Assembly (NCBI GenBank): GCA_000091165.1
Contig: FP565575.1
Location: forward strand, 870,001 to 902,000
Direction: 5' to 3'
Length of the DNA stretch: 32,000 nt
Source: Candidatus Methylomirabilis oxygeniifera
GTDB lineage: Bacteria; Methylomirabilota; Methylomirabilia; Methylomirabilales; Methylomirabilaceae
Of the stretch, positions 1 to 19,815 are shown piece by piece. Each line of letters begins with the position of its first letter. The stretch's first letter is position 1. Below the pieces are notes generated by a model that made no database searches, was not told the origin of the DNA, and saw only the letters and a program-made list of their open reading frames with translations. A program made the position numbers and the translations under genes.

Positions 1-455
1 TTGCGCACGCCGAAGAGGCGTTTCCCGAGGAGGCCTGTGGTATCGTGATAGGCAAACCGGGCGATCCGAATACGAACCTTGTTCGCAGATGCGGAAATCT
101 GGCGAATCAGTATCACCTGGACGATCCGACTCGGAATCCGAGAGATGCAAAGACCGCCTACATCATGGACCCGAAGGACCTGCTGCGGGTTCAAAGCGAA
201 GCGGATGCGAAGGGCTTCGAGTTCGTTGTGCTCTATCATTCACACCCGGATCATGAGGCCTACTTCTCCGAGACCGATCGAGAGTTGGCGCTGTTCGACG
301 GTGAACCAGTGTGGTCTCGGCTGCGCTATCTCGTGGTATCGGTGAAAAATGGAAAGGTCTCGTATTTCAGGGTATTCGGTTGGGACACCATCGAAAAGCA
401 GTTTACGGCGGAGCCGTCCGCTGTCTTTGAACGAAAAGACCAGCCTCTCGTGTAG
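1..455 (+). CDS. JAMM/MPN+ zinc metalloprotease (Mec+/CysO-hydrolase or HcyD-like), 5'-partial
   Basis: Frame 3 is open from the window edge (AHAEEAFPEEACGIVIG...), so the true start lies upstream. It has the catalytic Glu context EEACG and a complete JAMM motif, HSHPDHEAYFSETD (HxHx7Sx2D). Confidence 0.85.
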   Translation, partial: AHAEEAFPEEACGIVIGKPGDPNTNLVRRCGNLANQYHLDDPTRNPRDAKTAYIMDPKDLLRVQSEADAKGFEFVVLYHSHPDHEAYFSETDRELALFDGEPVWSRLRYLVVSVKNGKVSYFRVFGWDTIEKQFTAEPSAVFERKDQPLV

Positions 456-538: not shown

Positions 539-1480
539 ATGATGAATCTTGACGCCGGGCAGATTACGCTCATCGCGATCACGCTCTTTGCGGCTGCCGT
601 CAATGGGGCGCTGGGATACGGGTTTTCATCGCTGACCGTCCCGGTTGCTCTCATCTTTTATTCCAACCGGATCTTAAATCCCGCCCTGGTGTTGGTAGAG
701 GTGGCGCTCAACAGCTACGTACTGCTTGTCAATCGACGGAGCATCCCGAAGATCTGGAAGAGGGTGCTGCCGATCGTGTGCGGTCTCATTCCTGGCGTCA
801 TCGCGGGGAGCTATGCCCTCTCGATGGCAAGTCCGGAATGGCTGAAGCTGATCACGTATCTCATCGTGCTGCCGCTAATCCTGCTGCAGGCGGCAGGGGT
901 AAGACGGCCGATCCGGTCTGAGCGGCTCATTGGCGTGCCGTTTGGCGCCGGTGTCGGCGTACTCTATTCGACAACCACCATCTCTGGTCCTCCGTTGGCG
1001 CTCCTTTTTAACAATCAGGGCTTTGTCAAAGGCGAGTTTCGAGCCGCCCTTGGCATGATCAGAATGGTCGAATCGACCGTCACAGCGACTGCGTATTATT
1101 ACCTTGGAGTGTACACTGCGGGGAGCGTAGGACTCCTGTGGTCGATCGTGCCGAGCGTGGCGATAGGGATCCCGCTGGGGGCCTACGTCATCAGCCAGAT
1201 GAATGCTGAAACATTTCGCAGAATCTGTATGAGCTTTGACGCCTGGGTAGTGGGCTTCGGCTTATCCAAGGTGCTGATCGATCTGAAATTGACGACCAGC
1301 CCGAGTGGTTACATTGTCTGGCTGGCCGTTATCGTGACTGATCTGACGTTACTCTACGGCTTCTTTACGAGGCAGCCTGAGATCCCGGTGGCCGCCTTGG
1401 CGGTCGATGTCCCTGACGGTAGTCCCAGGCTCATACCGCAGAAAACTCCGGCTGTGACCCCGGATGATCTGGCTACGTAA
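539..1480 (+). CDS. TauE/SafE (DUF81) family sulfite/anion exporter-like membrane protein
   Basis: 313-aa polytopic hydrophobic protein with Gly-rich TM segments (AVNGALGYGFSSLTVPVAL, GVPFGAGVGVLYS) typical of DUF81. It sits directly upstream of sulfite reductase. Confidence 0.65.
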   Translation: MMNLDAGQITLIAITLFAAAVNGALGYGFSSLTVPVALIFYSNRILNPALVLVEVALNSYVLLVNRRSIPKIWKRVLPIVCGLIPGVIAGSYALSMASPEWLKLITYLIVLPLILLQAAGVRRPIRSERLIGVPFGAGVGVLYSTTTISGPPLALLFNNQGFVKGEFRAALGMIRMVESTVTATAYYYLGVYTAGSVGLLWSIVPSVAIGIPLGAYVISQMNAETFRRICMSFDAWVVGFGLSKVLIDLKLTTSPSGYIVWLAVIVTDLTLLYGFFTRQPEIPVAALAVDVPDGSPRLIPQKTPAVTPDDLAT

Positions 1481-1528
1481 GTCTATTTCTAGGCCGTTGG
1501 CGGGCGATGAATGATGGAGAGGGTAATC

Positions 1529-3358
1529 ATGAATAATGCGAGCGAACCGGTGGACGCTGAGCAGCCGGCAAACGTTTTAACTCCGACTAATGGACGGATC
1601 AATCAAGAAAAGGCGCAGTCCGCGAACGGGTCGTCCTGGGCCAGTGAGGAGGACATCGACACCTTCGATCAGTTTGTCCGGAGATTTTGGAAGGGGGAGA
1701 TCTCCCCGGACGAATTCAAGCGGTTCCGCCTGCAGAACGGGATCTATGGACAGCGGCAGGAAGGGGAGCAGATGTTTCGGATCAAGATCCCGTGGGGCGG
1801 CCTCAGTGCGGCTCAATTGGAGTTACTCGCCGAGTTGGCGGCGAAGGCTCCGAATGGGGTAGCCCACGTCACGACCCGCCAGAACATCCAGCTTCACTTC
1901 ATCAAGCTCGAGCAGGTAACAGGACTGATGAGGAGCCTGGCCTCGGTCGGCCTGACGACCAGAGAGGCCTGCGGCAACACCGTTCGCAACGTCACGGTCG
2001 GGCACTGCGCCGGGGTCTGTCCTCAGGAACTGTTTGACGTGACCCCGTATGCTGAGACGATTGCGCGATTTCTCCTGCGCAATCCGATGAACCAGAACCT
2101 GCCCAGGAAGTTTAAGATCTCATTCTCCGGTTGCCCCGACGACCTTGGCCTCAGTCCCATGCAGGACATCGGCGCCTGCGCCGCGCTGCGATCTGCGGAG
2201 GGTAAGGAGGAGCGCGGATTTCAGCTCTATGTCGGGGGCGGATTGGGTCCCATACCACGCATCGCGGAGTTGCTTGAGGAGTTTACGTCGGCGGATCGGC
2301 TCCTTCCGACAGTTGCTGCCGTCGTACGCGTATTCGACCGCCTCGGTAATCGCGACGATCGGCACAAGGCCAGGATGAAGTTTGTACTGAACAAGTTGGG
2401 GATCGAGACGTTTCGGGCGTTGGTGTTTCAGGAGCGGACCGGCCTCGAATCCACAATGGCCGGGCAGTTCCCTCCTATTGTCATGTGGGAGAAGGTCCCG
2501 CTTCATCAGGCGCCGTCCGGTTCGACGGGCGCCCCCGTAGAGCCTGACGATTCTGCCTACCGACGGTGGAGGACTACCAATGTTCTGCAACAGAAGCAGG
2601 CCGGGTATACCATGGTCTGTATTCGCCTTGAACTGGGTGACATCACCTCAGCGCAGCTCCGAACCCTCGCCTTTGCGGCGCGCGAGTTCGGCGATGGTGC
2701 CGTCCGCAGCACGAACCAGCAGAACTTCGCTCTCAGGTGGGTTCCGTCCGGGCGCCTGCCTGCGCTCTATCGGGTACTGAGCGCCGTCGGTCTGGCTGCT
2801 CCCGCGGCCGAACGGTTGGCTGATGTGACTGCCTGCCCAGGCGCCGATACCTGCCAACTCGGAATCACCTCCTCCCGCGGCCTGGGCGCCGCTCTGGGAG
2901 CGCTTTGCGATGATGAACTGAAGGGTCTGGCGGATGAGACGGGGATTCGGATCAAGATCTCCGCCTGTCCAAACTCTTGTGGTCAGCATCATCTTGCAGA
3001 CATCGGACTGTATGGCGGCGCCAAAAAGTTCAACGGTCAACAGGTGCCGACCTACGAGATGTTGCTGGGCGCGAGGTTGACGCCTGGCCAGGCGAGCTAT
3101 GCCAAACCGGTAGCGCGGATTCCGGCAAAGAATGTTCCGGGCGCGGTGGAGGCGGTCCTCCTGCACTATCAGAAAGAGCGACAGGATGGGGAGTCGTTCG
3201 GCAGCTTTTTGGATCGGCGTGGGTTGGAGTCCGCAAAGACGGTTCTGGCGCCGTTCACAGAGCTGCCGCCGGCCTCCGAGGCGCCGGATCAGTATCTTGA
3301 CTACAATGCTGAAGAGGCGTTTTCCATTCATGTTGGTCCCGGCGAGTGCGCCTCGTAG
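1529..3358 (+). CDS. sir: Ferredoxin-dependent sulfite reductase (nitrite/sulfite reductase family, siroheme/4Fe-4S)
   Basis: It carries the Cys-cluster motifs TACPGADTCQLG and ISACPNSCGQHH, characteristic of the siroheme-[4Fe-4S] site. The NIR_SIR repeat architecture is duplicated. It is in one operon with cysH and sat. I placed the start at ATG 1529, behind GGAGAGG; the ORF is open from 1511. Confidence 0.85.
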   Translation: MNNASEPVDAEQPANVLTPTNGRINQEKAQSANGSSWASEEDIDTFDQFVRRFWKGEISPDEFKRFRLQNGIYGQRQEGEQMFRIKIPWGGLSAAQLELLAELAAKAPNGVAHVTTRQNIQLHFIKLEQVTGLMRSLASVGLTTREACGNTVRNVTVGHCAGVCPQELFDVTPYAETIARFLLRNPMNQNLPRKFKISFSGCPDDLGLSPMQDIGACAALRSAEGKEERGFQLYVGGGLGPIPRIAELLEEFTSADRLLPTVAAVVRVFDRLGNRDDRHKARMKFVLNKLGIETFRALVFQERTGLESTMAGQFPPIVMWEKVPLHQAPSGSTGAPVEPDDSAYRRWRTTNVLQQKQAGYTMVCIRLELGDITSAQLRTLAFAAREFGDGAVRSTNQQNFALRWVPSGRLPALYRVLSAVGLAAPAAERLADVTACPGADTCQLGITSSRGLGAALGALCDDELKGLADETGIRIKISACPNSCGQHHLADIGLYGGAKKFNGQQVPTYEMLLGARLTPGQASYAKPVARIPAKNVPGAVEAVLLHYQKERQDGESFGSFLDRRGLESAKTVLAPFTELPPASEAPDQYLDYNAEEAFSIHVGPGECAS

Positions 3359-3421
3359 TGGTTGGATGAAGCTGAGCGCTGTTTGCTGAACGCTTTTTTC
3401 AAGAGCATAAGAGGAGAGAGC

Positions 3422-4402
3422 ATGCGAAGACAGATCGTCACGCCGGTCCTGTGGATAGTTGGACTGGCGTTAGCAGCAGGAGTCGCGTGGATTGACCAGG
3501 CGTGGGCGTACGAAGCCTGGGTCACGAATCAGGAAGATCATACCGTTATCGTGATCGATACCGAGACGAACAAGGTGATTGATACGATTACGCCAGGCGG
3601 TAAGAAGCCGCATAATGTTGCTTTCTCGCCGGATGGCGTCCATGCCTTTATCGCGAACGCCGCATCCAACGATGTGAGCATGGTCGACGTAAAGACGAGG
3701 AAGCTGGTTGCCACACTGCCTGCGGGAATCAGAGCCCATGGTCCGGCGGTCTCTCCGGATGGGCGGCAGCTCTGGGTGGCGAACCCGGGATCCAATGACG
3801 TGACGGTCATTGATCTGGAGGGGCGACACACGATCGATACGATCGCGGTAGGAAAGGCTCCCGCACTTATCGTCTTCGACCCGAAGGGCGTACGGGCCTA
3901 TGTCAGCAACGGGGGCTCTGGAGATCTGTCGGTGATCGACGTGAAGAGTCGAAAGATCGTCACGACGATCGAAGCCGGTCGAGGCGCCATGGGGACCGAC
4001 GTGACCTGGGACGGCAAACTCCTGTTGGTCACAGCAGGAGATGTAGATCAAATCGACGTCATTCATCTCGTGAATCATCAGGTTGCGGCACGGATTCCCC
4101 GCGATGGCGAGCCTCATGGCCTGGTGATCTCGCCTGACGGCAAGCGGGCGTATGTGGCCAATCGTAAGGCTAATGTCGTGTCGGTCATTGACTGCAAGGC
4201 GTTGAAGATCGTCAAAGATATTCCGGCAGGCAAGCGGATCGACATCGTGACGATCACGCCTGACGGCCGTCGGCTCTACGTGACCAGCCGTGACACAAAC
4301 AGTGTCATTGTCATCGATACATTGACGGATAAGATTGTCGCTGAGATCCCGACAGGAAAAGATCCGCATGGGATCGCCATACTCCCTGCGAGTCATCACT
4401 AA
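3422..4402 (+). CDS. Secreted YVTN-family beta-propeller repeat protein
   Basis: It has about seven repeats of roughly 40 aa, for example PHNVAFSPDGVHAFIANAASNDVSMVD, AHGPAVSPDGRQLWVANPGSNDVTVID, PHGLVISPDGKRAYVANRKANVVSVID and IDIVTITPDGRRLYVTSRDTNSVIVID. The N-terminus is signal-like (MRRQIVTPVLWIVGLALAAGVAWIDQAWA). An AGGAGAG RBS precedes ATG 3422. Confidence 0.8.
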   Translation: MRRQIVTPVLWIVGLALAAGVAWIDQAWAYEAWVTNQEDHTVIVIDTETNKVIDTITPGGKKPHNVAFSPDGVHAFIANAASNDVSMVDVKTRKLVATLPAGIRAHGPAVSPDGRQLWVANPGSNDVTVIDLEGRHTIDTIAVGKAPALIVFDPKGVRAYVSNGGSGDLSVIDVKSRKIVTTIEAGRGAMGTDVTWDGKLLLVTAGDVDQIDVIHLVNHQVAARIPRDGEPHGLVISPDGKRAYVANRKANVVSVIDCKALKIVKDIPAGKRIDIVTITPDGRRLYVTSRDTNSVIVIDTLTDKIVAEIPTGKDPHGIAILPASHH

Positions 4403-4481
4403 ACTATACGTGTATCAGTCGATTGCAACACCTTATGCAGTGATGGGCATGAAAGTCCGAGGGGGACTCCCGCGTCGCGTT

Positions 4482-4571
4482 GTCATTGCGAGCGACCAAC
4501 GGGAGCGCGGCAATCTTACCGTCGTAGTCCTAAAAGACTGTGGGATTGCTTCGGCTTCGCCTCGCAATGAC
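4482..4571. repeat. REP/MITE-like extragenic palindromic element
   Basis: Outer inverted repeat GTCATTGCGAG (4482-4492) / CTCGCAATGAC (4561-4571), with a nested GCAATC/GATTGC pairing. It lies in the intergenic gap between the YVTN gene and cysH. Translating across it gives the junk peptide (VIASDQRERGNL...ASPRNDM) typical of such repeats. Confidence 0.6.
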
Positions 4572-4663
4572 ATGGGAGACTTTCGAAGTAATGATATGGT
4601 CGTAATCGGGCGTAGAACTGCGTGAACCGTGTATGCATTCATGTGTTCCAACAAGGAGGAATG

Positions 4664-5449
4664 ATGGCAGGAGAATCGGGAGTGCAGAGTGTGAATCAAG
4701 GAAGTGGAACGTTGTCTGCGGAGGAGGTGGCTGAGCTGAATCGACGACTTCGCGGCGCCACGCCGGAGGCCGTGCTTCGATGGGCGATCGATACGTTCGC
4801 CCCGAAACTGGCGCTCGCCAGCAGTTTTGGGGCTGAAGATATGGTGTTGATCGATATGCTGTCGAAGCTTCAGCCACCGATTACGATCTTTACCCTGGAC
4901 ACCGGACGGCTGCATGAAGAGACGTACGACGTAATGGAGCGGACCCGGGAACGGTACAAGGTGACGATTGAGAGCTATTTTCCGGGGCGAGACGCCGTAG
5001 AGGCGTTGGAGCGAGAGCGCGGGTTTTATTCCTTCCGGCAGAGTGTCGAAGATCGAAAGTTCTGTTGTCGCGTTCGAAAGGTGGAGCCGCTGGGCCGGGC
5101 GTTGAAGAGTGTTGACGCATGGATCACTGGGCTTCGGCGGGAGCAGGCGGCGACCCGCACCGCGATCGACATCGTGGAAATCGATGCGAGCCATGGCTCA
5201 ATCCTCAAGATCAACCCTCTCGTCGAGTGGACCGAGCCGCAGGTCTGGGCATATATCCGCGAGCACGATGTGCCCTATAACGCCCTCCATGATCAGGGAT
5301 TCCCCAGCATCGGTTGCTCACCATGCACGCGGGCTATCAAGCCTGGTGAAGATGTGCGGGCGGGACGATGGTGGTGGGAAAACCCCGAGACCAAGGAGTG
5401 CGGGTTACATCTCGACAGCCGGCATGGCGATCACGGTAAAAGCAGCTAA
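4664..5449 (+). CDS. cysH: Adenosine 5'-phosphosulfate (APS) reductase, Fe-S type (CysH family)
   Basis: The Cys-Cys pair (KFCCRVRKVEPL) plus CxxC (GCSPCT) is the 4Fe-4S signature of APS-specific reductases. The C-terminal catalytic ECGLH motif is present. An AAGGAGGA RBS lies just upstream of ATG 4661/4664. Confidence 0.9.
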   Translation: MAGESGVQSVNQGSGTLSAEEVAELNRRLRGATPEAVLRWAIDTFAPKLALASSFGAEDMVLIDMLSKLQPPITIFTLDTGRLHEETYDVMERTRERYKVTIESYFPGRDAVEALERERGFYSFRQSVEDRKFCCRVRKVEPLGRALKSVDAWITGLRREQAATRTAIDIVEIDASHGSILKINPLVEWTEPQVWAYIREHDVPYNALHDQGFPSIGCSPCTRAIKPGEDVRAGRWWWENPETKECGLHLDSRHGDHGKSS

Positions 5450-5482
5450 GGCGAGGGGTCGATCTTAACGGGAGAGCAAATA

Positions 5483-6676
5483 ATGGCGGAATCGAAAGAA
5501 CTAACGGAGAATGAGGCGCTGACGCCGATCCTTCCGCATGGCGGGCGGCTCGTCTCGCGGGTACTGACAGGAGAGGCCAGGGCCGACGCGATCGGCAGAG
5601 CGCGAGATCTTCCGATGATCTCGTTGAACGCGAGGGCCATCTCGGACGTGGAATGCCTGGCCACCGGTGTGTTCAGTCCGCTCGAAGGGTTTATGAATCG
5701 AGCCGACTATGAGGGCGTAGTCCATGAAATGCGCCTGAAGAGCGGCATACTATGGACGTTGCCGATCACCTTGGCGGCGCCCAAGGATGATGTGGCTGGG
5801 CTCAAGCAGGGAGGCGAGGCGGCCTTACTCGGCTCGGACGGCGAACTGCTTGGTCTGCTTTCGGTGGAGGAGATTTTCCCTTATGATAAGCGAGCGGAGG
5901 CATGTCTGGTCTACAGCACCGAAGAGACGCGCCATCCGGGCGTCCAATACCTCTATCAGCGAGGCGATCTCCTGATAGGCGGTGCGGTCAGCCTGGTCCG
6001 GCCCCCGACGCTGCCTGGATTCGAAGACTATTACTACGTACCGACTGAGACGCGGCGGCAATTCAAGGAGCGCGGATGGCAGACCATCGTCGGGTTCCAG
6101 ACTCGCAACCCGATTCATCGATCGCACGAATACATTCAAAAGTGCGCGTTGGAGTTGATGGACGGTCTGCTGATCCACCCGCTGGTCGGTCGGACCAAAC
6201 TTGACGACATTCCATCGGAGATCCGCCTTCGTTGCTATCGCGCGCTTGAGGAACGTTACTTCCCGAAGGATCGCGTGATGCTGAGCGTGTTTCCCGGCGC
6301 GATGCGATATGCGGGCCCACGGGAGGCGGTCTTCCATGCTCTGGTCAGAAAGAATTACGGCTGCACCCACTTCATTGTTGGGCGGGATCCCGCTGGAGTC
6401 GGGGGCTACTACCATCCGTACGCAGCCCGTGACCTTTTCCTGCGGCTGAATCGCAATGAACTGGATATCACCCCGCTTTTCTTCGACGAGGCATTCTTCT
6501 GTCGTCGCTGCGATGGGATGGCGTCGGCCAAGACCTGCCCGCACGACGCTTCCGAGCGGGTTACGTTGAGCGGGACGCGCGTTCGCGAGCTCCTTCGGAG
6601 CGGCGAGCCGCTGCCGGAGGAGTTTACACGACCGGAGGTCTCGGAGATCCTGGCGGAATGGATGCAGGGAGTATAA
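5483..6676 (+). CDS. sat: Sulfate adenylyltransferase (ATP sulfurylase, homo-oligomeric type)
   Basis: It has the QTRNPIHRSHE (HxxH) and GRDPAGVG motifs diagnostic of ATP sulfurylase. Length is 397 aa. Confidence 0.9.
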   Translation: MAESKELTENEALTPILPHGGRLVSRVLTGEARADAIGRARDLPMISLNARAISDVECLATGVFSPLEGFMNRADYEGVVHEMRLKSGILWTLPITLAAPKDDVAGLKQGGEAALLGSDGELLGLLSVEEIFPYDKRAEACLVYSTEETRHPGVQYLYQRGDLLIGGAVSLVRPPTLPGFEDYYYVPTETRRQFKERGWQTIVGFQTRNPIHRSHEYIQKCALELMDGLLIHPLVGRTKLDDIPSEIRLRCYRALEERYFPKDRVMLSVFPGAMRYAGPREAVFHALVRKNYGCTHFIVGRDPAGVGGYYHPYAARDLFLRLNRNELDITPLFFDEAFFCRRCDGMASAKTCPHDASERVTLSGTRVRELLRSGEPLPEEFTRPEVSEILAEWMQGV

Positions 6677-7348
6677 TCAGAACTTCGGCAGCCGGGTGGT
6701 AGGGTAGTCGGCGTCGAACCAGTGGCCCATACCGCCCGGCACGTTGCCGACCCTCGGGAAGTGGTGATGCAGCAGGATACTGGCCGCCGTGCTGCTGCGC
6801 AAGCCCTCCGCACAGATCAGGACGGTCTCTCTGTGCGGATCGAGTGAGCCGGCGTGCTGCCAGATCTCTCCAAGCGGGATGAGCAGTGACTCTTGGATGT
6901 GGCCCCACTCCCACTCGAAGGGCTCACGCACGTCTATCAGCACCAGCTCTTCGGTGGCAGCGTGTAATCGTTGCCGGAGCGCGGCGGCGGATATCGGTGG
7001 CAGTGTAGCAAGCGGGAGCCCCTCGGCGCACCACGTAGCGATCCCAGTTGTGACGATACCCAGAAGAGGATTTCGGTGTATACCGTACAGGGCGTCCCTG
7101 GCGGCCTCGGCAACAGTTGCCTCGTCAGAGAAGAGTATGGTTGAGGGACCGGGCGGGATCGCAGTTGCGATACGCTCGGCAAGACTCTTACGACTGAAAG
7201 CAACATTGACACTTCGCGGAATATGGCCTGAGGCAAACGCGTCGTGCGGGCGCAGATCGATCAGCAACACGCCGGTCTCTAATGCGGCCTTCATCTGATG
7301 CGGCGTCAATATCGGTATCTCGGTCGGCATTGCGGTAGAATTCTCCAT
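6677..7348 (-). CDS. Tandem rhodanese-domain sulfurtransferase
   Basis: The protein has two rhodanese-like halves. The C-terminal half carries an active-site loop with Cys (LICAEGLRSS); the N-terminal half has no Cys. Its stop codon abuts the sat stop codon with a 0-nt gap, in convergent orientation. Confidence 0.75.
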   Translation of the reverse strand: MENSTAMPTEIPILTPHQMKAALETGVLLIDLRPHDAFASGHIPRSVNVAFSRKSLAERIATAIPPGPSTILFSDEATVAEAARDALYGIHRNPLLGIVTTGIATWCAEGLPLATLPPISAAALRQRLHAATEELVLIDVREPFEWEWGHIQESLLIPLGEIWQHAGSLDPHRETVLICAEGLRSSTAASILLHHHFPRVGNVPGGMGHWFDADYPTTRLPKF

Positions 7349-7460
7349 AAAAGCTATATCCGGGGTAGGGATTGGACTTTACTGTCTACCTGAGACAGTT
7401 TATACTCCACCGGATGAAAAGCTCAAGCGGAATCTACGCGGTCGATCTTCGAGAGAGGCG

Positions 7461-7700
7461 ATGACAAAAAAACGAGTGCACCTGACGTTCACCGGTAAGC
7501 TGACCGAGGAGCCGATCCTGTGGCAGTTGAGTCAGACATTCGATTTAGTGTTTAATATTCGTCAGGCTGATTTTACCGAAGGGATCGGGTGGATCATGGC
7601 TGAACTCGAGGGAGAGCCGCAGTCGCTTGAGAATGGGATCGAGTGGCTGGAGGCTCGCGGCGTCCATGTGGCGCCGATCGAGCAGGATATCGTCTCCTGA
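7461..7700 (+). CDS. Stand-alone NIL-domain protein (paralog 1)
   Basis: This 79-aa protein resembles the NIL domain found at the C-terminus of the methionine-transporter ATPase MetN. It is a clear paralog of the ORF at 7959-8195 (shared pattern ...EP[IV][IL][WY][QR]LS..F.L..N[IV]R.A..TE..G....EL.GE...L..GI.[WY]L...G[VI].V.P). A GAGAGAGG RBS is present. Confidence 0.55.
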   Translation: MTKKRVHLTFTGKLTEEPILWQLSQTFDLVFNIRQADFTEGIGWIMAELEGEPQSLENGIEWLEARGVHVAPIEQDIVS

Positions 7701-7716
7701 GTCGCGTGATTTGTGC

Positions 7717-7747
7717 TTGACAGGGGAAAGTCGTTTTGATTATATAA
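7717..7747 (+). promoter_or_regulatory. Sigma-70-type promoter for the riboswitch-controlled operon
   Basis: A perfect -35 TTGACA (7717-7722) is followed 17-18 nt later by TTATAT/TATATA (7740-7746). This puts the transcription start a few nt upstream of riboswitch helix P1. Confidence 0.6.
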
Positions 7748-7757
7748 CGAGCGTTGA

Positions 7758-7885
7758 CCTTTTCATCCAGAGTGGCTGAGGGACTGGCCCTGCGAAGCCA
7801 CGGCAACCGGTTTGCGGTTCACACCGGCAAACAGTGGTGCCAACTCCTACATCCCAGACACAGGGCGGGATGAGAGATGAGAAGG
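7758..7885 (+). promoter_or_regulatory. SAM-I (S-box) riboswitch aptamer
   Basis: P1 pairs CCTTTTCATC (7758-7767) with GATGAGAAGG (7876-7885). The conserved core is present: AGAGTGGCTGAGGGACTGGCCCTGCGAAGCCACGGCAACC ... GGTGCCAACTCC ... AGAGATGAGA. Confidence 0.9.
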
Positions 7886-7902
7886 AAGCCGTCGACTTCG
7901 AC

Positions 7903-7940
7903 AGCCCCTTCTCGCAGCCTTGAGAAGGGGCTTTTCATTT
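7903..7940 (+). terminator. Riboswitch expression-platform intrinsic terminator
   Basis: The stem pairs AGCCCCTTCTC (7903-7913) with GAGAAGGGGCT (7922-7932) and is followed by TTTTCATTT. The P1 3' strand GAGAAGG (7879-7885) is complementary to CCTTCTC (7907-7913). That gives a mutually exclusive antiterminator, so this is a transcriptional OFF switch. Confidence 0.8.
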
Positions 7941-7958
7941 CACAAAAGGGGTCATACC

Positions 7959-8195
7959 ATGCCGAAACGGATGATCACCCTCATCTATCCGCAGGCGCTC
8001 ATCAAAGAGCCGGTTATCTATCGTCTTTCGCGGGAATTCAAGCTTATTCCCAATGTCCGTCGGGCGCGGGTGACGGAGCAGACGGGCGAAGTACTGCTGG
8101 AGCTGGACGGCGAGGAGGGCGCGTTGAACAAGGGGATTGCCTACCTGGTCGGTCTGGGAATCAGGGTCGAGCCGACTCCAGAGAAGGGATGCTAA
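7959..8195 (+). CDS. Stand-alone NIL-domain protein (paralog 2), first gene of the riboswitch operon
   Basis: 78 aa (MPKRMITLIYPQALIKEPVIYRLSREFKLIPNVRRARVTEQTGEVLLELDGEEG...). It is a paralog of the ORF at 7461-7700. An AAAAGGGG RBS is present. Its stop lies 1 nt before the next ATG. The longer track ORF from 7920 would start inside the terminator, so I rejected it. Confidence 0.6.
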   Translation: MPKRMITLIYPQALIKEPVIYRLSREFKLIPNVRRARVTEQTGEVLLELDGEEGALNKGIAYLVGLGIRVEPTPEKGC

Positions 8196-8196
8196 G

Positions 8197-9450
8197 ATGG
8201 TGCTGGTGAAGGGACTCAAGTGCAGAGAGTGCGGTAGACCATATCCGGCTGATCCCCTGCATGTCTGTGAATATTGTTTCGGGCCTCTTGAGGTCGATTA
8301 TGATTACGACGCGATTCGAGGCAGATTGACGAGAAAGGCGATCGAGGCCGGACCGCCCAGCATCTGGCGATACAAGGCGCTGCTGCCGATCGAAGGGGAG
8401 CCCGTAGTCGGGAAACACTGCGGGATGACGCCCCTCGTGCGGGCCAATAACCTGGCGCGTGCGTTAGGTATGCGGGAGGTCTATGTCAAGAACGATACCG
8501 TCAGCCATCCTACGTTTTCATTTAAGGATCGGGTCGTGGCGGTGGCGGTGACGAAGGCCGTCGAGTTTGACTTTAAGGTGGTGGCCTGCGCGTCCACCGG
8601 CAATCTGGCAAATTCGGTGGCGGCCCATGCCGCCGAGGGAGGGCTTCCCAGCTTCGTATTTGTGCCGGCCGACCTGGAACAGGGCAAGGTGTTGGGCACC
8701 TTGATCTATAACCCGAAGCTGGTGGCTGTAGACGGTAACTACGATGAGGTGAATCGCCTGTGCAGCGAGATCGCCGATAAATATGGGTGGGCATTTGTGA
8801 ATATCAACATCCGACCCTACTACGCTGAGGGTTCGAAGACCTTCGGGTACGAGATTGCAGAGCAACTTGGCTGGCGCGTACCCCACCATATCGTTGTGCC
8901 GGCCGCGGGGGGTTCGCTGGTCACGAAGATCTTGAAGGGGCTGAAGGAGTTCGATCGGCTCGGTCTCCTGGATGGAGGCTGCCACACGCGGATGCATGTG
9001 GCTCAAGCCGAAGGATGCGGTCCGATTGTCACCGCTATCAAGGAGAACAGCGAGATCATCAGACCGGTGAAGCCGAAGACCATCGCCAAGTCGCTTGCCA
9101 TCGGGAACCCGGCGGACGGCTACTACGCCTACAAGGCGGTCAAAGGGAGCGGTGGTCATGGGGAGCACGCGACGGATGAGGAGATTGTAGACGCGATGAA
9201 GCTGTTGGCGCGCACCGAAGGGATCTTCGCGGAGACGGCAGGCGGGGTGACGGTAGCGGCGGCCAAGCGACTGATCGAGCAGGGCCGCATCCCTCGAGAT
9301 GAAAGTCTGGTGCTCTGCATTACCGGGAACGGGTTGAAGACTCAGGAGGCGGTCGCCGCATCATTGAAGGTTCGGTTCCACATCAAGCCGACCCTTCGAT
9401 CGTTCGACGAGGCGATGGCGTCTCACGACATTGACGTGACGTCAAGGTGA
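8197..9450 (+). CDS. Threonine-synthase-like PLP enzyme with N-terminal zinc ribbon (candidate O-phosphohomoserine-dependent homocysteine synthase)
   Basis: It has the PLP-lysine motif HPTFSFKDRVV and CASTGNLANS, as in the threonine synthase/Trp-synthase-beta fold. The N-terminus has a zinc ribbon, CRECG...CEYC. The start at ATG 8197 is translationally coupled to the NIL gene. The family call is solid; the physiological reaction is inferred. Confidence 0.8.
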   Translation: MVLVKGLKCRECGRPYPADPLHVCEYCFGPLEVDYDYDAIRGRLTRKAIEAGPPSIWRYKALLPIEGEPVVGKHCGMTPLVRANNLARALGMREVYVKNDTVSHPTFSFKDRVVAVAVTKAVEFDFKVVACASTGNLANSVAAHAAEGGLPSFVFVPADLEQGKVLGTLIYNPKLVAVDGNYDEVNRLCSEIADKYGWAFVNINIRPYYAEGSKTFGYEIAEQLGWRVPHHIVVPAAGGSLVTKILKGLKEFDRLGLLDGGCHTRMHVAQAEGCGPIVTAIKENSEIIRPVKPKTIAKSLAIGNPADGYYAYKAVKGSGGHGEHATDEEIVDAMKLLARTEGIFAETAGGVTVAAAKRLIEQGRIPRDESLVLCITGNGLKTQEAVAASLKVRFHIKPTLRSFDEAMASHDIDVTSR

Positions 9451-9531
9451 GCGCTCAGCCGTCGGCCTGAGAATACTGAATGGTTGGTTCAATCACACGA
9501 AGGCAAGACATCATTAAAAGGAGAGAAATCG

Positions 9532-9810
9532 ATGAGTGTGAAAGTGCGCATCCCAACCCCTTTACGTGGTCTGACCAGCGGGCAGGGAGAGGTGGAGGGG
9601 CAGGGCAACTCTATTAATGAGCTGATCGAGAATCTGGAACAGTCGTATGCCGGCTTGCGGGAACGAATCTATGATGAGGCTGGTAGCGTCCGCCGTTTCA
9701 TCAATATCTATGTGAATGAGGAGGATATCCGATTTCTGCAGGGCATCTCAACGCCGCTCAAGCCCGGCGATCTCGTCTCCATCGTCCCGGCCATCGCCGG
9801 CGGTTGCTGA
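9532..9810 (+). CDS. MoaD/ThiS/CysO-family ubiquitin-like sulfur-carrier protein, C-terminus Gly-Gly-Cys
   Basis: 92 aa, MSVKVRIPTPLR...FINIYVNEEDIRF...GDLVSIVPAIAGGC*. Size and pattern match the MoaD/CysO family. An AAAGGAGAG RBS lies upstream of ATG 9532. Confidence 0.75.
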   Translation: MSVKVRIPTPLRGLTSGQGEVEGQGNSINELIENLEQSYAGLRERIYDEAGSVRRFINIYVNEEDIRFLQGISTPLKPGDLVSIVPAIAGGC

Positions 9811-12842: not shown

Positions 12843-13628
12843 ATGATCTCGAAGCGGGTCGATCTGAATAGCGATGTTGGAGAGAGCTTTGGCGTCTGGA
12901 CGAGAGGGAACGATGAGGCGCTGATGCCCTCTCTTACCTCGGCGAGTATTGCCTGCGGATGGCACGGCGGGGATCCACAGGTGATGCGACGGACCGTCAG
13001 GCTTGCGAAGGCGCACGGCGTCAAGGTTGGAGCGCATCCGGGCTTCCCTGATCTGTTGGGCTTCGGTCGGCGACCGATGCAGCTCTCACCCGGGGAGGCG
13101 AAAGACTATCTTCTATACCAGATCGGGGCGCTCTGGGCCTTTATACAGGCTGAGGGGATGCGACTTCAACATGTCAAGCCTCATGGGGCGCTCTATCATA
13201 TGGCTGCCGGCGATCGGTTGCTATCCGAAGCCATTGCGGAAGCGATCGCCGAAGTCGACCGCACCCTAATCTTAGTTGGGCCGCCAGGATCTGCGCTTCT
13301 GTCGGCCGGGCAGGGGGCGGGACTGCGAACGGCGCAGGAAGGATTCGGCGATCGCGCCTACAATGAAGACGGAAGCCTGGTGCCCCGATCGGTGCGTGGC
13401 GCACTCCTGACCGATCCTGATACAGTGGCTGATCGGGTCCTGTTGATGCTTGAAGGGAAGGTACGGGCTATCACGGGTCGGATGATTCCCATTACAGTAG
13501 ATACTGTCTGCCTGCATGGCGATACCCCTGGCATGCCGGCTATTGCAACGCGGCTTCGCGAGCGACTGGCGCTGGCGGGCGTCGAGGTCGTACCATTGGA
13601 GGAACTCCTTGTCGGTCAGGTTTCGTGA
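12843..13628 (+). CDS. pxpA: 5-oxoprolinase subunit A (LamB/YcsF family)
   Basis: The N-terminal VDLNSDVGESFG motif and GAHPGFPD are characteristic of LamB/YcsF. Confidence 0.85.
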   Translation: MISKRVDLNSDVGESFGVWTRGNDEALMPSLTSASIACGWHGGDPQVMRRTVRLAKAHGVKVGAHPGFPDLLGFGRRPMQLSPGEAKDYLLYQIGALWAFIQAEGMRLQHVKPHGALYHMAAGDRLLSEAIAEAIAEVDRTLILVGPPGSALLSAGQGAGLRTAQEGFGDRAYNEDGSLVPRSVRGALLTDPDTVADRVLLMLEGKVRAITGRMIPITVDTVCLHGDTPGMPAIATRLRERLALAGVEVVPLEELLVGQVS

Positions 13629-14295
13629 CGGCGGAGAGAGCTGCCTGGTGGCGGAGCTGGGCGACGCCATTGATATTGCGTTGAACCGTCAAGTCCGGGC
13701 GCTGGACCAGGCGTTAGAGCAGGCACGGGTGGAAGGGGTGCTGGAAGCTGTACCCACCTATCGATCGCTCGCCATCTACTACGATCCGCTCGTTGTCGGC
13801 CGTGATATCTTACGGCAGCAGGTCAGCGCGCTATACGATTCATTAGGTGGCCAAGGCGACCGGACAGTCAAGGAGGTAGAGGTCCCGACTGTTTACGGTG
13901 GCGAATATGGTCCAGACCTCGAGTTCGTTGCCCGCCACAGCGGTCTGTCGCCGAATGAGGTGATTCGTCTCCATTCGGAGCCGGTTTATCATGTCTACAT
14001 GGTCGGTTTTATGGTCGGCTTTCCCTACCTTGGTGATCTTGTGGAACGGCTTGCCGTTCCACGGCTTTCGACGCCCCGCCTGAAGGTGCCGGCCGGCTCC
14101 GTAGGGATCGGTGGGAGGCAGACCGGCATTTATCCTGTTGAGAGTCCGGGGGGCTGGCGGATCATAGGGCGCACATCCCTTCGCCTCTTCGATCCTTCTT
14201 CTGAGACGCCGACCGCGATCCTTCCGGGCGACACGGTTCGATTTGTGCCAATCGCGCCGCGCGACCAGACGGGAGCGCAGTGTGGACGCCTTTGA
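13609..14295 (+). CDS. pxpB: 5-oxoprolinase subunit B (KipI / allophanate hydrolase subunit 1 family)
   Basis: It has AVPTYRSLAIYYDP, VYHVYMVGFMVGFPYLG and GIGGRQTGIYPVESPGGWRIIGRT. The start is uncertain. I chose TTG 13609, which overlaps the pxpA stop; the ORF is open from 13516. Confidence 0.75.
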   Translation: MSVRFRDGGESCLVAELGDAIDIALNRQVRALDQALEQARVEGVLEAVPTYRSLAIYYDPLVVGRDILRQQVSALYDSLGGQGDRTVKEVEVPTVYGGEYGPDLEFVARHSGLSPNEVIRLHSEPVYHVYMVGFMVGFPYLGDLVERLAVPRLSTPRLKVPAGSVGIGGRQTGIYPVESPGGWRIIGRTSLRLFDPSSETPTAILPGDTVRFVPIAPRDQTGAQCGRL

Positions 14296-15370
14296 GGTCG
14301 TCAAGCCCGGGTTCCTGACTACTGTCCAGGACCTTGGGCGGATCGGATATCAGAAATTCGGCGTGCCGACTTCCGGCGCGATGGATCGGACCGCATTGCG
14401 GGCCGCCAACCTTCTGCTTGATAATAAGGAAGGATTTGCCGGCTTAGAGGCGACGGCGGAGGGGCCGACGCTCCGCGCGCTCATTGACCTGGTTGTGGCG
14501 ATCGTTGGCGCGGACATGCAGCCGCTGGTAGACGGAAGGTCGGTTGACAGTGAGACGGCCGTTGAGATCCGGAGCGGTCAGACTCTTGAGCTCCAGCGTG
14601 CCAGGCGAGGGATTCGCGCCTACCTGGCGGTTGCCGGCGGGATTGATGTGCCTGTTCTGCTCGGGAGCCGTTCTACGTGCCTCCCAGCCGCTTTCGGTGG
14701 TGTTTGCGGGCGGGCCCTGTGTGAGAACGATCGTCTACCGATCGGCCCGGTCGATCGACAGCCTACGGCACTTATCGGGCGTCGACTGCCATCGGGGTGG
14801 TTGAAGCCGATAGGTGAGGTACTGACGGTTCGCGTGGTCCTTGGGTTGCAGGAAGATCAGTTTACCCCTGAAGGGATTCGTACATTCTTGAGTGAGTCGT
14901 ACCGTGTCACTCCACAGATGGATCGGGTGGGTGTCAGACTTTATGGACCGTCGATCGCGCATCGATCAGGCGCGGATATCATCTCTGATTCGACCCCGCT
15001 GGGGGCGGTACAAGTGGCGGCTGACGGTCAACCAATGATCTTATTGGCCGACCGTCAGGCGACCGGCGGCTACACAAAGATCGCGGTTGTCATACAAGAA
15101 GACATCTGGCGATTGGGACAGGCTAGGCCCGAGCAGGTTGTCCGGTTTCGCCCGATCTCCGTATCCGAGGCCTGCGCCGCCCTGCGGACCTACGAGGAAA
15201 GATTTGACGTATTACGGCGAACATGGCAAAGTCCACCAAATGAGCGTGGTAGCTACAGGCTACGCCTTGGGGGCGGATCGTATCGAGTCGGTGTGGAAGA
15301 GGCGCGCGGGTCCTATCGGGTGAGTCTTGAAGGTATAGAGCGAGAATTGGATGATACTGAAGAACCATAA
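14282..15370 (+). CDS. pxpC: 5-oxoprolinase subunit C (KipA / allophanate hydrolase subunit 2 family) with C-terminal extension
   Basis: KPGFLTTVQDLGRIGYQKFGVPTSGAMD and QATGGYTKIAVV match KipA. The GTG 14282 start overlaps the pxpB stop. Confidence 0.8.
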   Translation: MDAFEVVKPGFLTTVQDLGRIGYQKFGVPTSGAMDRTALRAANLLLDNKEGFAGLEATAEGPTLRALIDLVVAIVGADMQPLVDGRSVDSETAVEIRSGQTLELQRARRGIRAYLAVAGGIDVPVLLGSRSTCLPAAFGGVCGRALCENDRLPIGPVDRQPTALIGRRLPSGWLKPIGEVLTVRVVLGLQEDQFTPEGIRTFLSESYRVTPQMDRVGVRLYGPSIAHRSGADIISDSTPLGAVQVAADGQPMILLADRQATGGYTKIAVVIQEDIWRLGQARPEQVVRFRPISVSEACAALRTYEERFDVLRRTWQSPPNERGSYRLRLGGGSYRVGVEEARGSYRVSLEGIERELDDTEEP

Positions 15371-16962: not shown

Positions 16963-17559
<597 letters not shown>

Positions 17560-17644
17560 GGGGACGCGGTAACGGAAAAGTCTACGGTTTCATGAACGGT
17601 TCAACGGCGAATTGTTCGACCCAAGAAGGAGGAAAGGCAGTCCT

Positions 17645-19059
17645 ATGACACCGAAGGATGTCATCAAGCTGGCGAACGAGCAAGGCGCGAAGATCGTGGA
17701 CTTCAGGTTCATCGATCTGCCTGGTCTGTGGCAGCATTTTTCCATGTCCGGTCGAGAATTGACGGAAGGGTTGTTTGCGGACGGAATCGGATTTGACGGC
17801 TCTTCCATTCGAGGTTTCCAGCAGATTCACGAATCGGACATGCTCCTAATTCCTGATCCTGCGACGGCGATGATGGACCCTTCGCGGCCGTTCCTACGCT
17901 GGTCTTGATCTGTAATATCATGGATCCGGTGACACGGCAGCTCTACAGTCGAGACCCGCGGTATATTGCGCAGAAGGCTGAGGCGTATCTGATGTCAACC
18001 GCGCTTGCGGATACCGCCTACTTCGGGCCTGAGTTGGAGTTTTTCGTCTTCGACGACGTTCGGTTCGATCAGAGCTACCAGCACGGCTACTACTTCATCG
18101 ACTCGGAGGAAGGATTCTGGAACGCCGGGAAGGATGAAAAACCGAATCTGGCCTATAAGCCTCGCTATAAGCAGGGCTACTTCCCCGTACCGCCGATGGA
18201 CAAGCTCCAGGATCTCCGCTCGGAGATGATGCTGGCGCTGGAGTCCGTTGGCGTTGAGATCGAGGTTCACCATCACGAGGTTGCGACGGCCGGCCAGTGC
18301 GAGATCGACATGCGGTTCGATACGCTGACCAGGATGGCGGACAAGGTGCAGTGGTACAAGTACTGCGTGAAGAACACCGCTCGCAAGCACGGCAAGACCG
18401 TCACCTTCATGCCGAAGCCGATATTCCAGGACAACGGCTCAGGCATGCACGTTCACCAGAGCCTCTGGAGGGGCGGTAAGAATACCTTCTGGGAGCTGGG
18501 GGGGTACGGGGATCTGTCCGCGACGGCCCGCTACTACATCGGTGGGTTGCTGAAGCATGCGCCTGCGCTCTGCGCCTTCATCGCCCCAACCACGAATTCG
18601 TACCGACGGCTTGTGCCCGGCTATGAGGCGCCGATCAATCTTGTGTACAGCCAACGTAACCGATCCGCCGCCGCCCGGATTCCTCTCTATTCAAAGAGCG
18701 AAAAAGCCAAGCGGATTGAGTTCCGAACGCCCGACCCAAGTTGCAACGCCTATCTGGCCTTCGGCGCGCTACTGATGGCGGGGATTGACGGCATTCAGAA
18801 CAAGATCGACCCGGGTCAGCCGATCGACAAAGACCTGTATGAGCTCGAGCCGGAAGAGGCGATGGAGATCAAGCAGTTGCCCGGTAGTTTGGGCGAAGTC
18901 CTGGACGCCCTGGAAGCCGATCACGAGTTCCTTCTGAAGGGCGATGTCTTTACGCCTGACCTCATTGATACCTGGATCGACTACAAGCGGAAGAATGAGG
19001 TCGATCCGATCCGCCTTCGCCCCCACCCGTGGGAGTTCGCTCTCTACTTCGACATCTAA
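17645..19059 (+). pseudogene. glnA: Glutamine synthetase type I, interrupted by a single-nucleotide frameshift near 17879-17881
   Basis: The N-terminal piece (17645-17908) ends ...[13 protein letters not shown], then runs out of frame to a TGA. The other frame continues [30 protein letters not shown]... through 19059 with all GSI motifs. The total span of 1415 nt is 3n+2, which is consistent with one missing base. An AAGGAGGA RBS precedes ATG 17645. Confidence 0.85.
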
Positions 19060-19082
19060 TCTCTCTGTGGTTGTAGTTGTGC

Positions 19083-19122
19083 AAACGGTCCTGGATGGTT
19101 CATCCAGGACCGTTTTACTTTT
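19083..19122 (+). terminator. Intrinsic terminator after glnA
   Basis: The stem pairs AACGGTCCTGGATG with CATCCAGGACCGTT and is followed by TTTACTTTT. Confidence 0.7.
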
Positions 19123-19263
19123 CCCTGATCCAAGAACATGTCTGTGGTTTTTATCCCTGACCTTCTGACCCAACTTGTGGGGCCTGGACTCGTCATGATA
19201 CTATTCACTCGTTGGTAACATAGCCGGTATCGGTCGTGGAATGGAGACATGAGGAGGGACGCA

Positions 19264-19689: not shown

Positions 19690-19749
19690 TCCATAATATC
19701 GCAAAAGGGAGGCGTGACCTGATATGCCTTCCGGTCTTGGGTCGTATGC

Positions 19750-19788
19750 GAGCGGAGACGGTGCTGCCGTTTCCGCTCGTCGTTTTTT
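19750..19788 (+). terminator. Intrinsic terminator after lipoprotein gene
   Basis: A 12-bp stem pairs GAGCGGAGACGG with CCGTTTCCGCTC, with loop TGCTG. GTCG and then TTTTTT follow. Confidence 0.65.
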
Positions 19789-19815
19789 AGGCAGTCAGTC
19801 TGTGAGGGCCATGTC

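Follow-up and report, generated by a model that had tools for sequence, protein, structure and literature searches.

A stretch of 32,000 nucleotides from Candidatus Methylomirabilis oxygeniifera (contig FP565575.1, positions 870,001 to 902,000; the window in what follows) carries a small operon that is preceded by an S-adenosylmethionine (SAM) riboswitch. The operon encodes a stand-alone NIL protein (NIL2), a pyridoxal phosphate (PLP) enzyme with the fold of threonine synthase (ThrC), and a small sulfur carrier, and it is considered here as a candidate for the synthesis of homocysteine. A second NIL gene, NIL1, lies 5' of the riboswitch and is not controlled by it. The trio formed by a NIL protein, a zinc-ribbon ThrC-fold enzyme and a MoaD/ThiS-like carrier had been claimed in a first-pass annotation of this DNA, and it is borne out by matches to the Pfam families NIL, PALP and ThiS. 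The features of the operon and its leader are the following:

7461..7700, + strand: NIL1, stand-alone NIL protein of 79 residues (Pfam NIL, 60.5 bits)
7717..7746, + strand: possible promoter, TTGACA, a spacer of 17-18 nucleotides and TTATATA (read by eye; tentative)
7760..7883, + strand: SAM-I (S-box) riboswitch aptamer (Rfam RF00162)
7879..7913, + strand: antiterminator helix, GAGAAGG (7879-7885) paired with CCUUCUC (7907-7913) (folding of the nascent RNA)
7903..7940, + strand: intrinsic terminator with a T-rich tail (terminator scan and folding)
7959..8195, + strand: NIL2, stand-alone NIL protein of 78 residues (Pfam NIL, 48.5 bits)
8197..9450, + strand: ThrC-fold PLP enzyme of 417 residues, MetM-like candidate (Pfam PALP, 235 bits)
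9532..9810, + strand: MetO/CysO-like sulfur carrier of 92 residues with the precursor tail ...AIAGG-Cys (Pfam ThiS, 57.9 bits)

The riboswitch leader and the layout of the operon

The SAM-I riboswitch claimed earlier was confirmed by an Rfam search of the window, in which RF00162 matched with 85.6 bits (gathering score 44.4, E 3.7e-19). The same aptamer scored 101.8 bits with a covariance model, R1, that was built in this analysis from 13 homologous leaders; these leaders share a four-helix consensus, and compensatory changes were found in 12 of its 31 consensus pairs. The terminator stem (7903-7932) has 12 base pairs, seven of them G-C, it is followed by TTTCATTT, and its energy is -26 kcal/mol. 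The bases of the antiterminator overlap the 3' strand of P1 as well as the 5' arm of the terminator. When the nascent RNA was folded only up to position 7916, i.e., before the 3' arm of the terminator is synthesized, the minimum-free-energy fold of nucleotides 7760-7916 contained the antiterminator (-62.9 kcal/mol, versus -55.8 kcal/mol with the canonical P1 enforced), and in this way both elements of the previously claimed terminator/antiterminator platform were recovered. The minimum-energy fold of the full leader retains the terminator and the antiterminator is visible in the nascent transcript only; therefore, the argument is a kinetic and not a thermodynamic one. Given these computed motifs and energies, the leader would act as a kinetic transcriptional OFF switch. 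At 7868-7883 the sequence GAUGAGA is duplicated in tandem (GGAUGAGAGAUGAGAA) and either copy can pair as P1; in the absence of ligand, the fold of the nascent RNA uses the proximal copy to close an alternative P1, for which P4 is sacrificed, and the distal copy goes into the antiterminator. Upstream of the aptamer, the TTGACA at 7717-7722 matches a -35 hexamer perfectly; a scan for consensus promoters called no + strand promoter at 7717-7746.

NIL2 is the first gene behind the riboswitch, and its TAA is separated from the ATG of the enzyme gene by one base. On the other hand, the carrier gene follows after a gap of 81 nucleotides and has its own ribosome-binding site (AGGAG), so that the translational coupling that had been described for the whole operon holds at the NIL2/enzyme junction and not for the carrier. 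The enzyme has 417 residues rather than the 418 given before, with a Cys4 zinc ribbon ('NinF') at its N-terminus (residues 8-32), and the carrier is 47% identical to CysO from Mycobacterium tuberculosis. The database proteins closest to those of the window are 93-96% identical, and one of them comes from Ca. Methylomirabilis (NC10).

The enzyme between MetM and threonine synthase

The first-pass annotation had hinted at a MetM/MetO-type route to homocysteine, and such a route indeed exists: it was reported for Streptomyces albulus by Hasebe, Adachi, Maruyama and Hamano (2024, Appl Environ Microbiol 90:e01247-24, as cited in GapMind 2026; PMC12172450). As outlined in GapMind 2026, it involves MetO as the sulfur carrier, MetM as the homocysteine synthase that depends on the MetO thiocarboxylate, the hydrolase Mec and the ligase MoeZ; MetM is a ThrC homologue that is often misannotated as ThrC, and O-phosphohomoserine is made by the HomK family. 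According to the account in PMC12172450, a SAM riboswitch lies upstream of metM in S. albulus and homologues occur in cyanobacteria, the one from Microcystis being 51.6% identical to S. albulus MetM; the latter is reported to be 33% identical to ThrC from Bacillus subtilis. The operon of the window resembles this system in having a ThrC-homologous PLP enzyme and a ThiS/MoaD-type carrier with a SAM riboswitch upstream, in its presumable need for a JAMM peptidase (Mec) and a ubiquitin-type activating enzyme or E1 (MoeZ), in its annotation as threonine synthase, and in an identity of about 33-35% to orthodox ThrC. It differs in that it belongs to NC10, in the two stand-alone NIL genes that flank the riboswitch, and in its sulfate-assimilation setting.

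The comparison with threonine synthases of known structure (from Aquifex, Thermus, Bacillus and M. tuberculosis) gave 167-195 bits for the window enzyme, along residues ~55-386 only, and 430-508 bits for the short ThrC of a Nitrospirota/Thermodesulfovibrio locus (L010); the score of the window enzyme is thus less than half of that of a true orthologue. The same locus encodes a zinc-ribbon enzyme, to which the window enzyme is 65% identical, versus 35% to the short ThrC. In L010 and in two more loci from this group (L011 and L015) the gene order is zinc-ribbon enzyme, carrier, NIL, short ThrC, HomK match and aspartokinase. The HomK protein of L010 passes the cutoff of TIGR02535 ('proposed homoserine kinase'; 566.9 versus 446.3 bits), and the copies in L011 and L015 were recovered by phmmer seeded with the L010 kinase. 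The producer of O-phosphohomoserine and both of its consumers are therefore found in one transcription unit, at 7986-13381 in L010 and also in L011 and L015. The zinc-ribbon enzyme and an orthodox ThrC share an operon in L049 and L163 as well.

Fixed substitutions separate 83 zinc-ribbon members from the co-occurring short ThrCs: L137, N204, R206 and Y209 in the former stand for T, S, N and R in the latter, and the corresponding motifs are FKDRVV versus FKDRGM, STGNL versus STGNT, and N-x-N-x-R-P-[YF]-Y versus N-S-x-N-P-x-R. Residues T88, S155 and R160 of the Thermus ThrC align to L137, N204 and Y209 in all 83 members; we take these three ThrC residues to participate in phosphate binding, for which a literature search gave no confirmation. 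Judged from its sequence, the enzyme is a paralogue of ThrC and separate from the orthodox threonine synthases. This is in line with the Microcystis homologue, which belongs to a lineage apart from canonical ThrC and whose Km for O-phosphohomoserine is 4.4 uM.

The relatives of the enzyme were collected in one scan of reference genomes, carried out with an alignment of diverse relatives, that returned at least 600 matches, and 80 loci (57-71% identical) were analysed. The phyla represented are Planctomycetota, Nitrospirota, Nitrospinota, Chloroflexota, Cyanobacteria, Verrucomicrobiota, Desulfobacterota, Actinomycetota and Aquificota, among others. Genes were counted within 3 kb of the enzyme gene and on the same strand in these loci plus the window (n=81), and the hidden Markov model (HMM) for the carrier was built from stand-alone carriers to avoid a drift into NIL through fusion proteins. 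A carrier without NIL was found in 35 loci, a carrier and a separate NIL in 29, a single gene for a carrier~NIL fusion in eight, and neither of them in nine, some of which are on truncated contigs; in total, the carrier is near the enzyme in 72 of the 81 loci and NIL in 37. With model R1, a SAM-I riboswitch was detected directly upstream of the enzyme gene and on its strand in 29 of the 80 related loci (one of them weak), which represent at least seven phyla. It is also present upstream of an enzyme from Micromonospora that is 53% identical to that of the window: in Micromonospora coriariae (L081, 6855-8287) the SAM-I element is directly 5' of the MetM-like gene and there is no adjacent carrier gene, which means that this genome must have it at another site.

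A Pfam census of the same-strand neighbours in the loci with NIL (148 open reading frames, ORFs) yielded ThiF 23 times, further PLP enzymes 20, Prok-JAB 13, DsrE six and TusA three times; in the loci that lack NIL, ThiF accounted for four of 83 ORFs and Prok-JAB was not among the families listed. Some neighbours that had been drawn in by an iterated rhodanese HMM proved not to be rhodaneses, given that Pfam assigns them to the ThiF-family E1 enzymes. A 76%-identical relative (L082, on a contig of 5.6 Mb) shows the order Rrf2, ThiS~ThiF, Prok-JAB, an ORF of unknown family, NIL, SAM-I, NIL, enzyme and carrier. The genes that precede NIL1 in this locus (6885-9190) include the ThiS~ThiF protein, in which a carrier-like domain is N-terminal to the E1, and a conserved ORF of 166 residues without a Pfam match that recurs in L083. 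The layout NIL, SAM-I, NIL, enzyme, carrier is kept in L082 and L083, in a 94%-identical relative (L084), and in 20 metagenome loci. A different arrangement was seen in seven loci (L028, L038, L040, L041, L044, L048 and L062) that belong to Nitrospiraceae/Nitrospirales and, in one case, to a Ca. Manganitrophaceae; their genes are in the conserved order CysM-like enzyme, ThiF, MetM-like enzyme, carrier, NIL, second ThiF and JAMM, i.e., with two E1 genes, and there is no SAM-I riboswitch.

The proposal that the so-called threonine synthase is a thiocarboxylate-dependent homocysteine synthase acting on O-phosphohomoserine thus finds support in comparative genomics, namely in the operons shared with ThrC and HomK, the linkage to carrier, ThiF and JAMM genes, the SAM-I elements upstream in many phyla and the low ThrC scores. 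We consider it likely that the operon is a protein-thiocarboxylate-dependent homocysteine synthase operon of the MetM/MetO type. Several observations weigh against this assignment. The enzyme scores above the cutoff of the thrC equivalog model TIGR00260 (286.8 versus 167.1 bits), and slightly under that of NF006050 (292.8 versus 303 bits). Its orthology to S. albulus MetM is indirect, by a chain of identities that goes through the Micromonospora enzyme (53%) and the cyanobacterial members (57-63%); a homologue from Micromonosporaceae used as query had its best 120 matches all within Micromonosporaceae, and no Streptomyces was among the matches listed. No E1 of the ThiF/MoeZ type was found in the window, nor in L084 over the 10 kb that precede the enzyme gene. 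Finally, the cyanobacterial homologue shows some threonine synthase, and also threonine deaminase, activity in vitro.

Some of these points would be expected if the gene encoded a genuine, possibly bifunctional, threonine synthase and the riboswitch served to balance the threonine and methionine branches at O-phosphohomoserine, all the more since the window enzyme shares with ThrC both the PLP lysine and the S-T-G-N loop. We regard this as very unlikely. All close homologues that bear a name are annotated as threonine synthase because they pass the generic thrC model, NCBIfam release 20 contains no MetM-specific model, and GapMind describes MetM as commonly misannotated in precisely this manner. 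Moreover, the Microcystis homologue forms threonine at a very low rate (0.018 umol/mg/min), and a canonical ThrC2 is kept in cyanobacteria; the low scores against the four solved ThrCs, the five operons with both types of enzyme, the substitutions fixed in the 83 members and the tight linkage to sulfur carrier, ThiF, JAMM and SAM-I riboswitches also argue against a threonine synthase. A different assignment of parts would have the carrier and the JAMM peptidase serve mainly a CysO/CysM-type synthesis of cysteine, together with an upstream CysK/M-like enzyme, and the ThrC-like enzyme use free sulfide. It fits with the resemblance of the carrier to CysO and with its terminal Cys, which corresponds to the product state of CysM, as well as with the CysM-like genes near the system in many loci, e.g., L084, where the gene directly 5' of that for JAMM encodes a CysK/M-like enzyme (TIGR01136, 347 bits). 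Nevertheless, the carrier gene comes right after the ThrC-like gene in a SAM-controlled operon, the enzyme and carrier are linked in 72 of 81 loci, many of them (such as the cyanobacterial ones) without a CysM-like gene nearby, and MetM, as its published description is cited, uses the MetO thiocarboxylate; we thus find this division of labour unlikely. The two uses of the carrier do not exclude each other, and a carrier shared between cysteine and homocysteine synthesis is plausible.

NIL proteins that accompany the sulfur carrier

The idea, already present in the first-pass annotation, that NIL is a third component of the system gained weight from both directions of the survey. In addition to the 37 enzyme loci with NIL described above, metagenome contigs were scanned with an alignment of the NIL2 type, which covers one NIL subtype only, and 80 NIL-centred loci were obtained. 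Enzyme or carrier genes accompany NIL in 67 of these, ThiF in 41 and JAMM in 20, and among the NIL-centred contigs of at least 6 kb the zinc-ribbon enzyme is present in 32 of 33. Two architectures recur in the metagenome loci, i.e., JAMM, CysM-like enzyme, enzyme, carrier, ThiF and NIL, or else NIL, enzyme and carrier, the latter mostly with a second NIL upstream; in the second architecture SAM-I is located just 5' of the enzyme-proximal NIL in 20 loci, and between the NIL genes where there are two. A protein database search with one carrier~NIL fusion as query revealed at least 120 protein clusters of such fusions; all those listed consist of ThiS plus NIL in 167-189 residues, with identities down to 58%, and those that carry a name are labelled 'MoaD family protein' or 'molybdopterin synthase sulfur carrier subunit'. 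Tandem NIL-NIL polypeptides were also observed, in L026 (2139-2672, 177 residues) and L059 (12481-13032, 183 residues), which would fit a NIL dimer; the first repeat of the L026 protein has the MetN-like motif FNIISANV.

There is no mention of NIL in the pathway description of GapMind 2026, the survey of prokaryotic ubiquitin-like systems by Iyer, Burroughs and Aravind (2006) mentions neither NIL nor threonine synthase, and among the ranked results of a full-text literature search there was no paper that joined 'NIL domain' with sulfur-carrier terms. On present evidence, NIL is an undescribed and widespread accessory of the MetM/MetO pathway; Hasebe et al. (2024) may mention it.

NIL1 and NIL2 are both above the cutoff of Pfam NIL (PF09383; 24 bits) and are 38% identical to each other. 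A single-sequence search of the PDB with NIL2 gave no match; the NIL profile matched the C2 domain of Escherichia coli MetN (3dhx) with an E-value of 7.6e-10, and N295-I-I-S-A299 of MetN is the aligned counterpart of the motif N-[IV]-R-[RQ]-A of the family. In this protein, N295 forms a hydrogen bond with L-methionine and the N295A mutant loses methionine binding, and A299 lies on the strand of the dimer interface whose shift in register locks the C2 dimer (PMC6233128). All of 28 operon NILs have the alanine equivalent to A299, and 23 of them the asparagine equivalent to N295; across 50 fusions both residues are invariant. The NIL domain of the homocysteine-forming L-ASST from methanogens has likewise been described as methionine-binding and regulatory. 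A role of NIL as a persulfide carrier or relay was rejected, given that no cysteine is conserved.

In the alignment of 50 fusions the PAIAGG end of the carrier is internal, with an invariant Gly-Gly, and in most of them a linker of three to six residues leads to the NIL domain. An AlphaFold (AF2) model of a natural carrier~NIL fusion, taken from the database matches, has a mean predicted local distance difference test score (pLDDT) of 89.9, with a dip at the linker, and a predicted template modelling score (pTM) of 0.54; both domains are thus well folded, but how they are oriented to each other is not predicted with confidence. Its carrier half is 52% identical to CysO (3dwg_C), with a TM score of 0.92, and its NIL half superimposes on the selenomethionine-bound C2 domain of MetN (3tuz) with a root-mean-square deviation of 0.9 A over 73 columns. 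PDB entry 1v8c, a 'MoaD related protein' from Thermus thermophilus, was considered as a solved example of these fusions and discarded, its C-terminal domain not being NIL by sequence; with 168 residues it has a carrier-like N-terminal domain, an internal PPVAGGG and ~78 residues more, and it is an analogous carrier with an extension.

From the resemblance to MetN, we tentatively favour the idea that NIL is a dimeric sensor of methionine (or homocysteine) that would give post-translational feedback, and NIL1 and NIL2 may form a heterodimer. With the same reserve, it can be suggested that the NIL proteins and domains constitute an unrecognised dedicated component, namely ACT-like sensors of methionine or homocysteine that would gate the carrier cycle at the MetM, E1 or JAMM step, and that the fusions are 1:1 precursors to be cleaved in the manner of ubiquitin. 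Certain observations do not sit easily with a role of this kind. The asparagine is replaced by Asp or Ser in five of the 28 operon NILs. In 35 of the 81 loci, including all the cyanobacterial ones, there is a carrier and no nearby NIL; therefore NIL is not essential for the chemistry. Besides, NIL is associated with JAMM and with extensions of the carrier tail, which could point to a function in maturation or as an adaptor: JAMM occurs near NIL in 19 of 40 loci versus one of 44 loci that lack NIL, and the carrier tail is extended or fused in 23 of 35 loci with NIL versus eight of 30 without it, all of these counts being uncorrected for phylogeny.

Accordingly worded, the alternative is that NIL is not a feedback sensor but a maturation or adaptor partner that docks the carrier by its C-terminal end (GG-Cys, GG-X or a methionine-like GG-homocysteine) for JAMM or E1, the fused NIL being a removable cap that is cleaved at GG. 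The fusions with their invariant internal GG and short linker, the JAMM gene found in seven of the eight fusion loci, and the model, whose high pLDDT and low pTM suggest that there is no fixed interface, as expected of a cleavable precursor, all speak in its favour, and it is compatible with an amino-acid-binding ancestry of NIL. However, the NIL-less set on which the co-occurrence depends is dominated by cyanobacteria with dispersed genes, in 12 loci with NIL the carriers already end at GG, and the only documented function of a NIL domain is the allosteric sensing of methionine. In addition, MetN binds the free amino acid groups of its ligand, and in a carrier-linked homocysteine the amine is acylated. 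An adaptor therefore appears to us rather doubtful, though sensing and docking by NIL are not mutually exclusive.

Proposed pathway, related systems and surrounding genes

The sensor interpretation of NIL can be combined with the assignment of the enzyme in the following scheme. At low SAM the antiterminator (7879-7913) would form and NIL2, the metM-like and the metO-like genes would be transcribed; at high SAM, P1 would close and the terminator (7903-7932) would halt transcription. The carrier would be made with a ...GG-Cys end and, as in the precedents of CysO/Mec, HcyS-Ala/HcyD and MetO/Mec, a JAMM peptidase would remove the Cys to leave Gly-Gly. A ThiF/MoeZ-type E1, encoded outside the window and clustered with the system in relatives, would adenylate the carrier, which would be converted to its thiocarboxylate (carrier-COSH) with sulfur from the sulfide produced by Sat, CysH and sulfite reductase, or from rhodanese. 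By analogy with the chemistry of MetM and CysM, the enzyme would eliminate the phosphate of O-phosphohomoserine and the carrier thiocarboxylate would be added at C-gamma; homocysteine would then be released, possibly with the help of the JAMM peptidase. The NIL proteins, as the least certain part of the scheme, would be accessory subunits, most likely dimeric ACT-like sensors resembling the L-methionine-binding C2 domain of MetN, and would provide a rapid post-translational feedback, directed at the enzyme, the E1 or the maturation of the carrier, that complements the slower riboswitch. If NIL is indeed a sensor, Methylomirabilis would have a two-tier control, in which SAM is read by the riboswitch and methionine by a NIL1/NIL2 heterodimer.

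This scheme shares with the CysM/CysO/Mec+/MoeZ system of M. tuberculosis (3dwg, 3dwm) a CysO-like carrier and the logic of activation by an E1, attack of the thiocarboxylate on a PLP-bound intermediate derived from a phospho-amino acid, and hydrolysis by JAMM; a CysK/M-like gene also adjoins the JAMM gene upstream in L084. Unlike CysM, which has a CysK-type fold and carries out a beta-replacement on O-phosphoserine, the window enzyme is predicted to have a ThrC-type fold and to carry out a gamma-replacement on O-phosphohomoserine, in an operon with SAM-riboswitch control and NIL partners. Another thiocarboxylate-dependent synthesis of homocysteine, by HcyS, HcyD, HcyF and MetY, was reportedly described in Wolinella succinogenes by Krishnamoorthy and Begley. 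There, the carrier is said to have an extra C-terminal residue that is cut by a JAMM protein, the product is homocysteine and the genes are clustered with those for sulfate/sulfite reduction; it reportedly differs in the use of MetY, an O-acetylhomoserine sulfhydrylase of fold type I, and O-acetylhomoserine instead of a ThrC fold and O-phosphohomoserine. We know of no NIL partner for the HcyS/HcyD/MetY system. The NIL proteins share with MetN C2 and with the NIL-ferredoxin of L-ASST (MA1822/DUF39) the family PF09383, a beta-alpha-beta-beta-alpha-beta fold and the connection to methionine/homocysteine metabolism, and with MetN C2 the Asn and Ala equivalent to N295 and A299; in contrast to both, NIL is here free-standing (~78 residues), in tandem or a C-terminal extension of the carrier, and has no ATP-binding cassette ATPase or ferredoxin attached.

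The core of the system, i.e., a ThrC-like enzyme under a SAM riboswitch that, together with a carrier, makes homocysteine from O-phosphohomoserine, has been known since 2024; the locus of the window is a member from a new phylum, and the NIL component appears to be the new part. With the at least 600 matches of the reference-genome scan, the MetM-like family is widespread. Given that the MetM-like enzymes and the fusions are misnamed, a false gap in methionine synthesis is to be expected in metabolic reconstructions for NC10, Nitrospirota, Planctomycetota, Chloroflexota, Verrucomicrobiota and cyanobacteria. The motifs STGNL and N-x-N-x-R-P-[YF]-Y, together with a neighbouring carrier gene, offer a practical way to separate MetM-like enzymes from ThrC. 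The tight reciprocal association with NIL suggests an unstudied layer of regulation or maturation in a ubiquitin-like sulfur-carrier pathway, and the number of unrelated methionine systems with NIL domains is now three: MetN transport, DUF39/L-ASST and MetM/MetO. The parts of the system are small soluble proteins and are thus directly testable.

Upstream of the operon, the window contains a series of sulfur genes:

1..455, + strand: 3' part of a gene for a Prok-JAB/JAMM metallopeptidase, Mec/HcyD-like, cut by the window edge (Pfam, 54.3 bits)
539-1480, + strand: TauE-family, sulfite exporter-like protein (Pfam)
1511-3358, + strand: sulfite reductase (Pfam)
3362-4402, + strand: seven-bladed beta-propeller, YNCE-like (Pfam)
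4622-5449, + strand: phosphoadenosine/adenosine phosphosulfate (PAPS/APS) reductase (Pfam)
5483-6676, + strand: ATP sulfurylase (Pfam)
6677..7348, - strand: tandem rhodanese sulfurtransferase (Pfam Rhodanese, 81.6 bits, two stretches)

The region can thus be read as the module for the methionine branch within a sulfur-assimilation cluster of Ca. Methylomirabilis (NC10). The first-pass annotation included neither NIL1 nor the JAMM gene at 1-455 nor the sulfate-assimilation genes. In the part of the JAMM gene that lies in the window an intact HSHPDHEAYFSETD motif is readable, and in L084 a complete JAMM gene, for a protein of 158 residues, occupies the matching position; this peptidase is a candidate for trimming the C-terminal Cys of the carrier and for releasing the carrier-bound product. 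The gene order of 539-6676 is identical in L084. The YNCE-like propeller gene, placed between those for sulfite reductase and PAPS/APS reductase, is kept in that locus at 5330-6310. The rhodanese gene is divergent from NIL1, it is also conserved in L084, and its product is a possible persulfide donor. Further upstream, L084 has (1032-2445) a YeeE-type transporter, two TusA genes, and the CysK/M-like enzyme gene directly 5' of the JAMM gene. The sole visible carrier, with its GG-Cys end, may serve both cysteine and homocysteine synthesis.

The rest of the window contains genes of ordinary nitrogen metabolism that bear no relation to the operon. At 12843-15370 (+ strand) there is a LamB/YcsF gene with two carboxyltransferase-domain genes, probably for subunits of 5-oxoprolinase, and at 16972-22962 (+ strand) a cluster of P-II, glutamine synthetase and the adenylyltransferase GlnE. 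Two ordinary housekeeping RNAs were also detected, a bacterial class A RNase P RNA at 24841-25281 (+ strand, 298.8 bits) and a tRNA-Glu(UUC) at 26093-26169 (- strand). The P-II ORF, listed with 195 residues, has an N-terminal extension of ~80 residues that probably reflects an over-called start.

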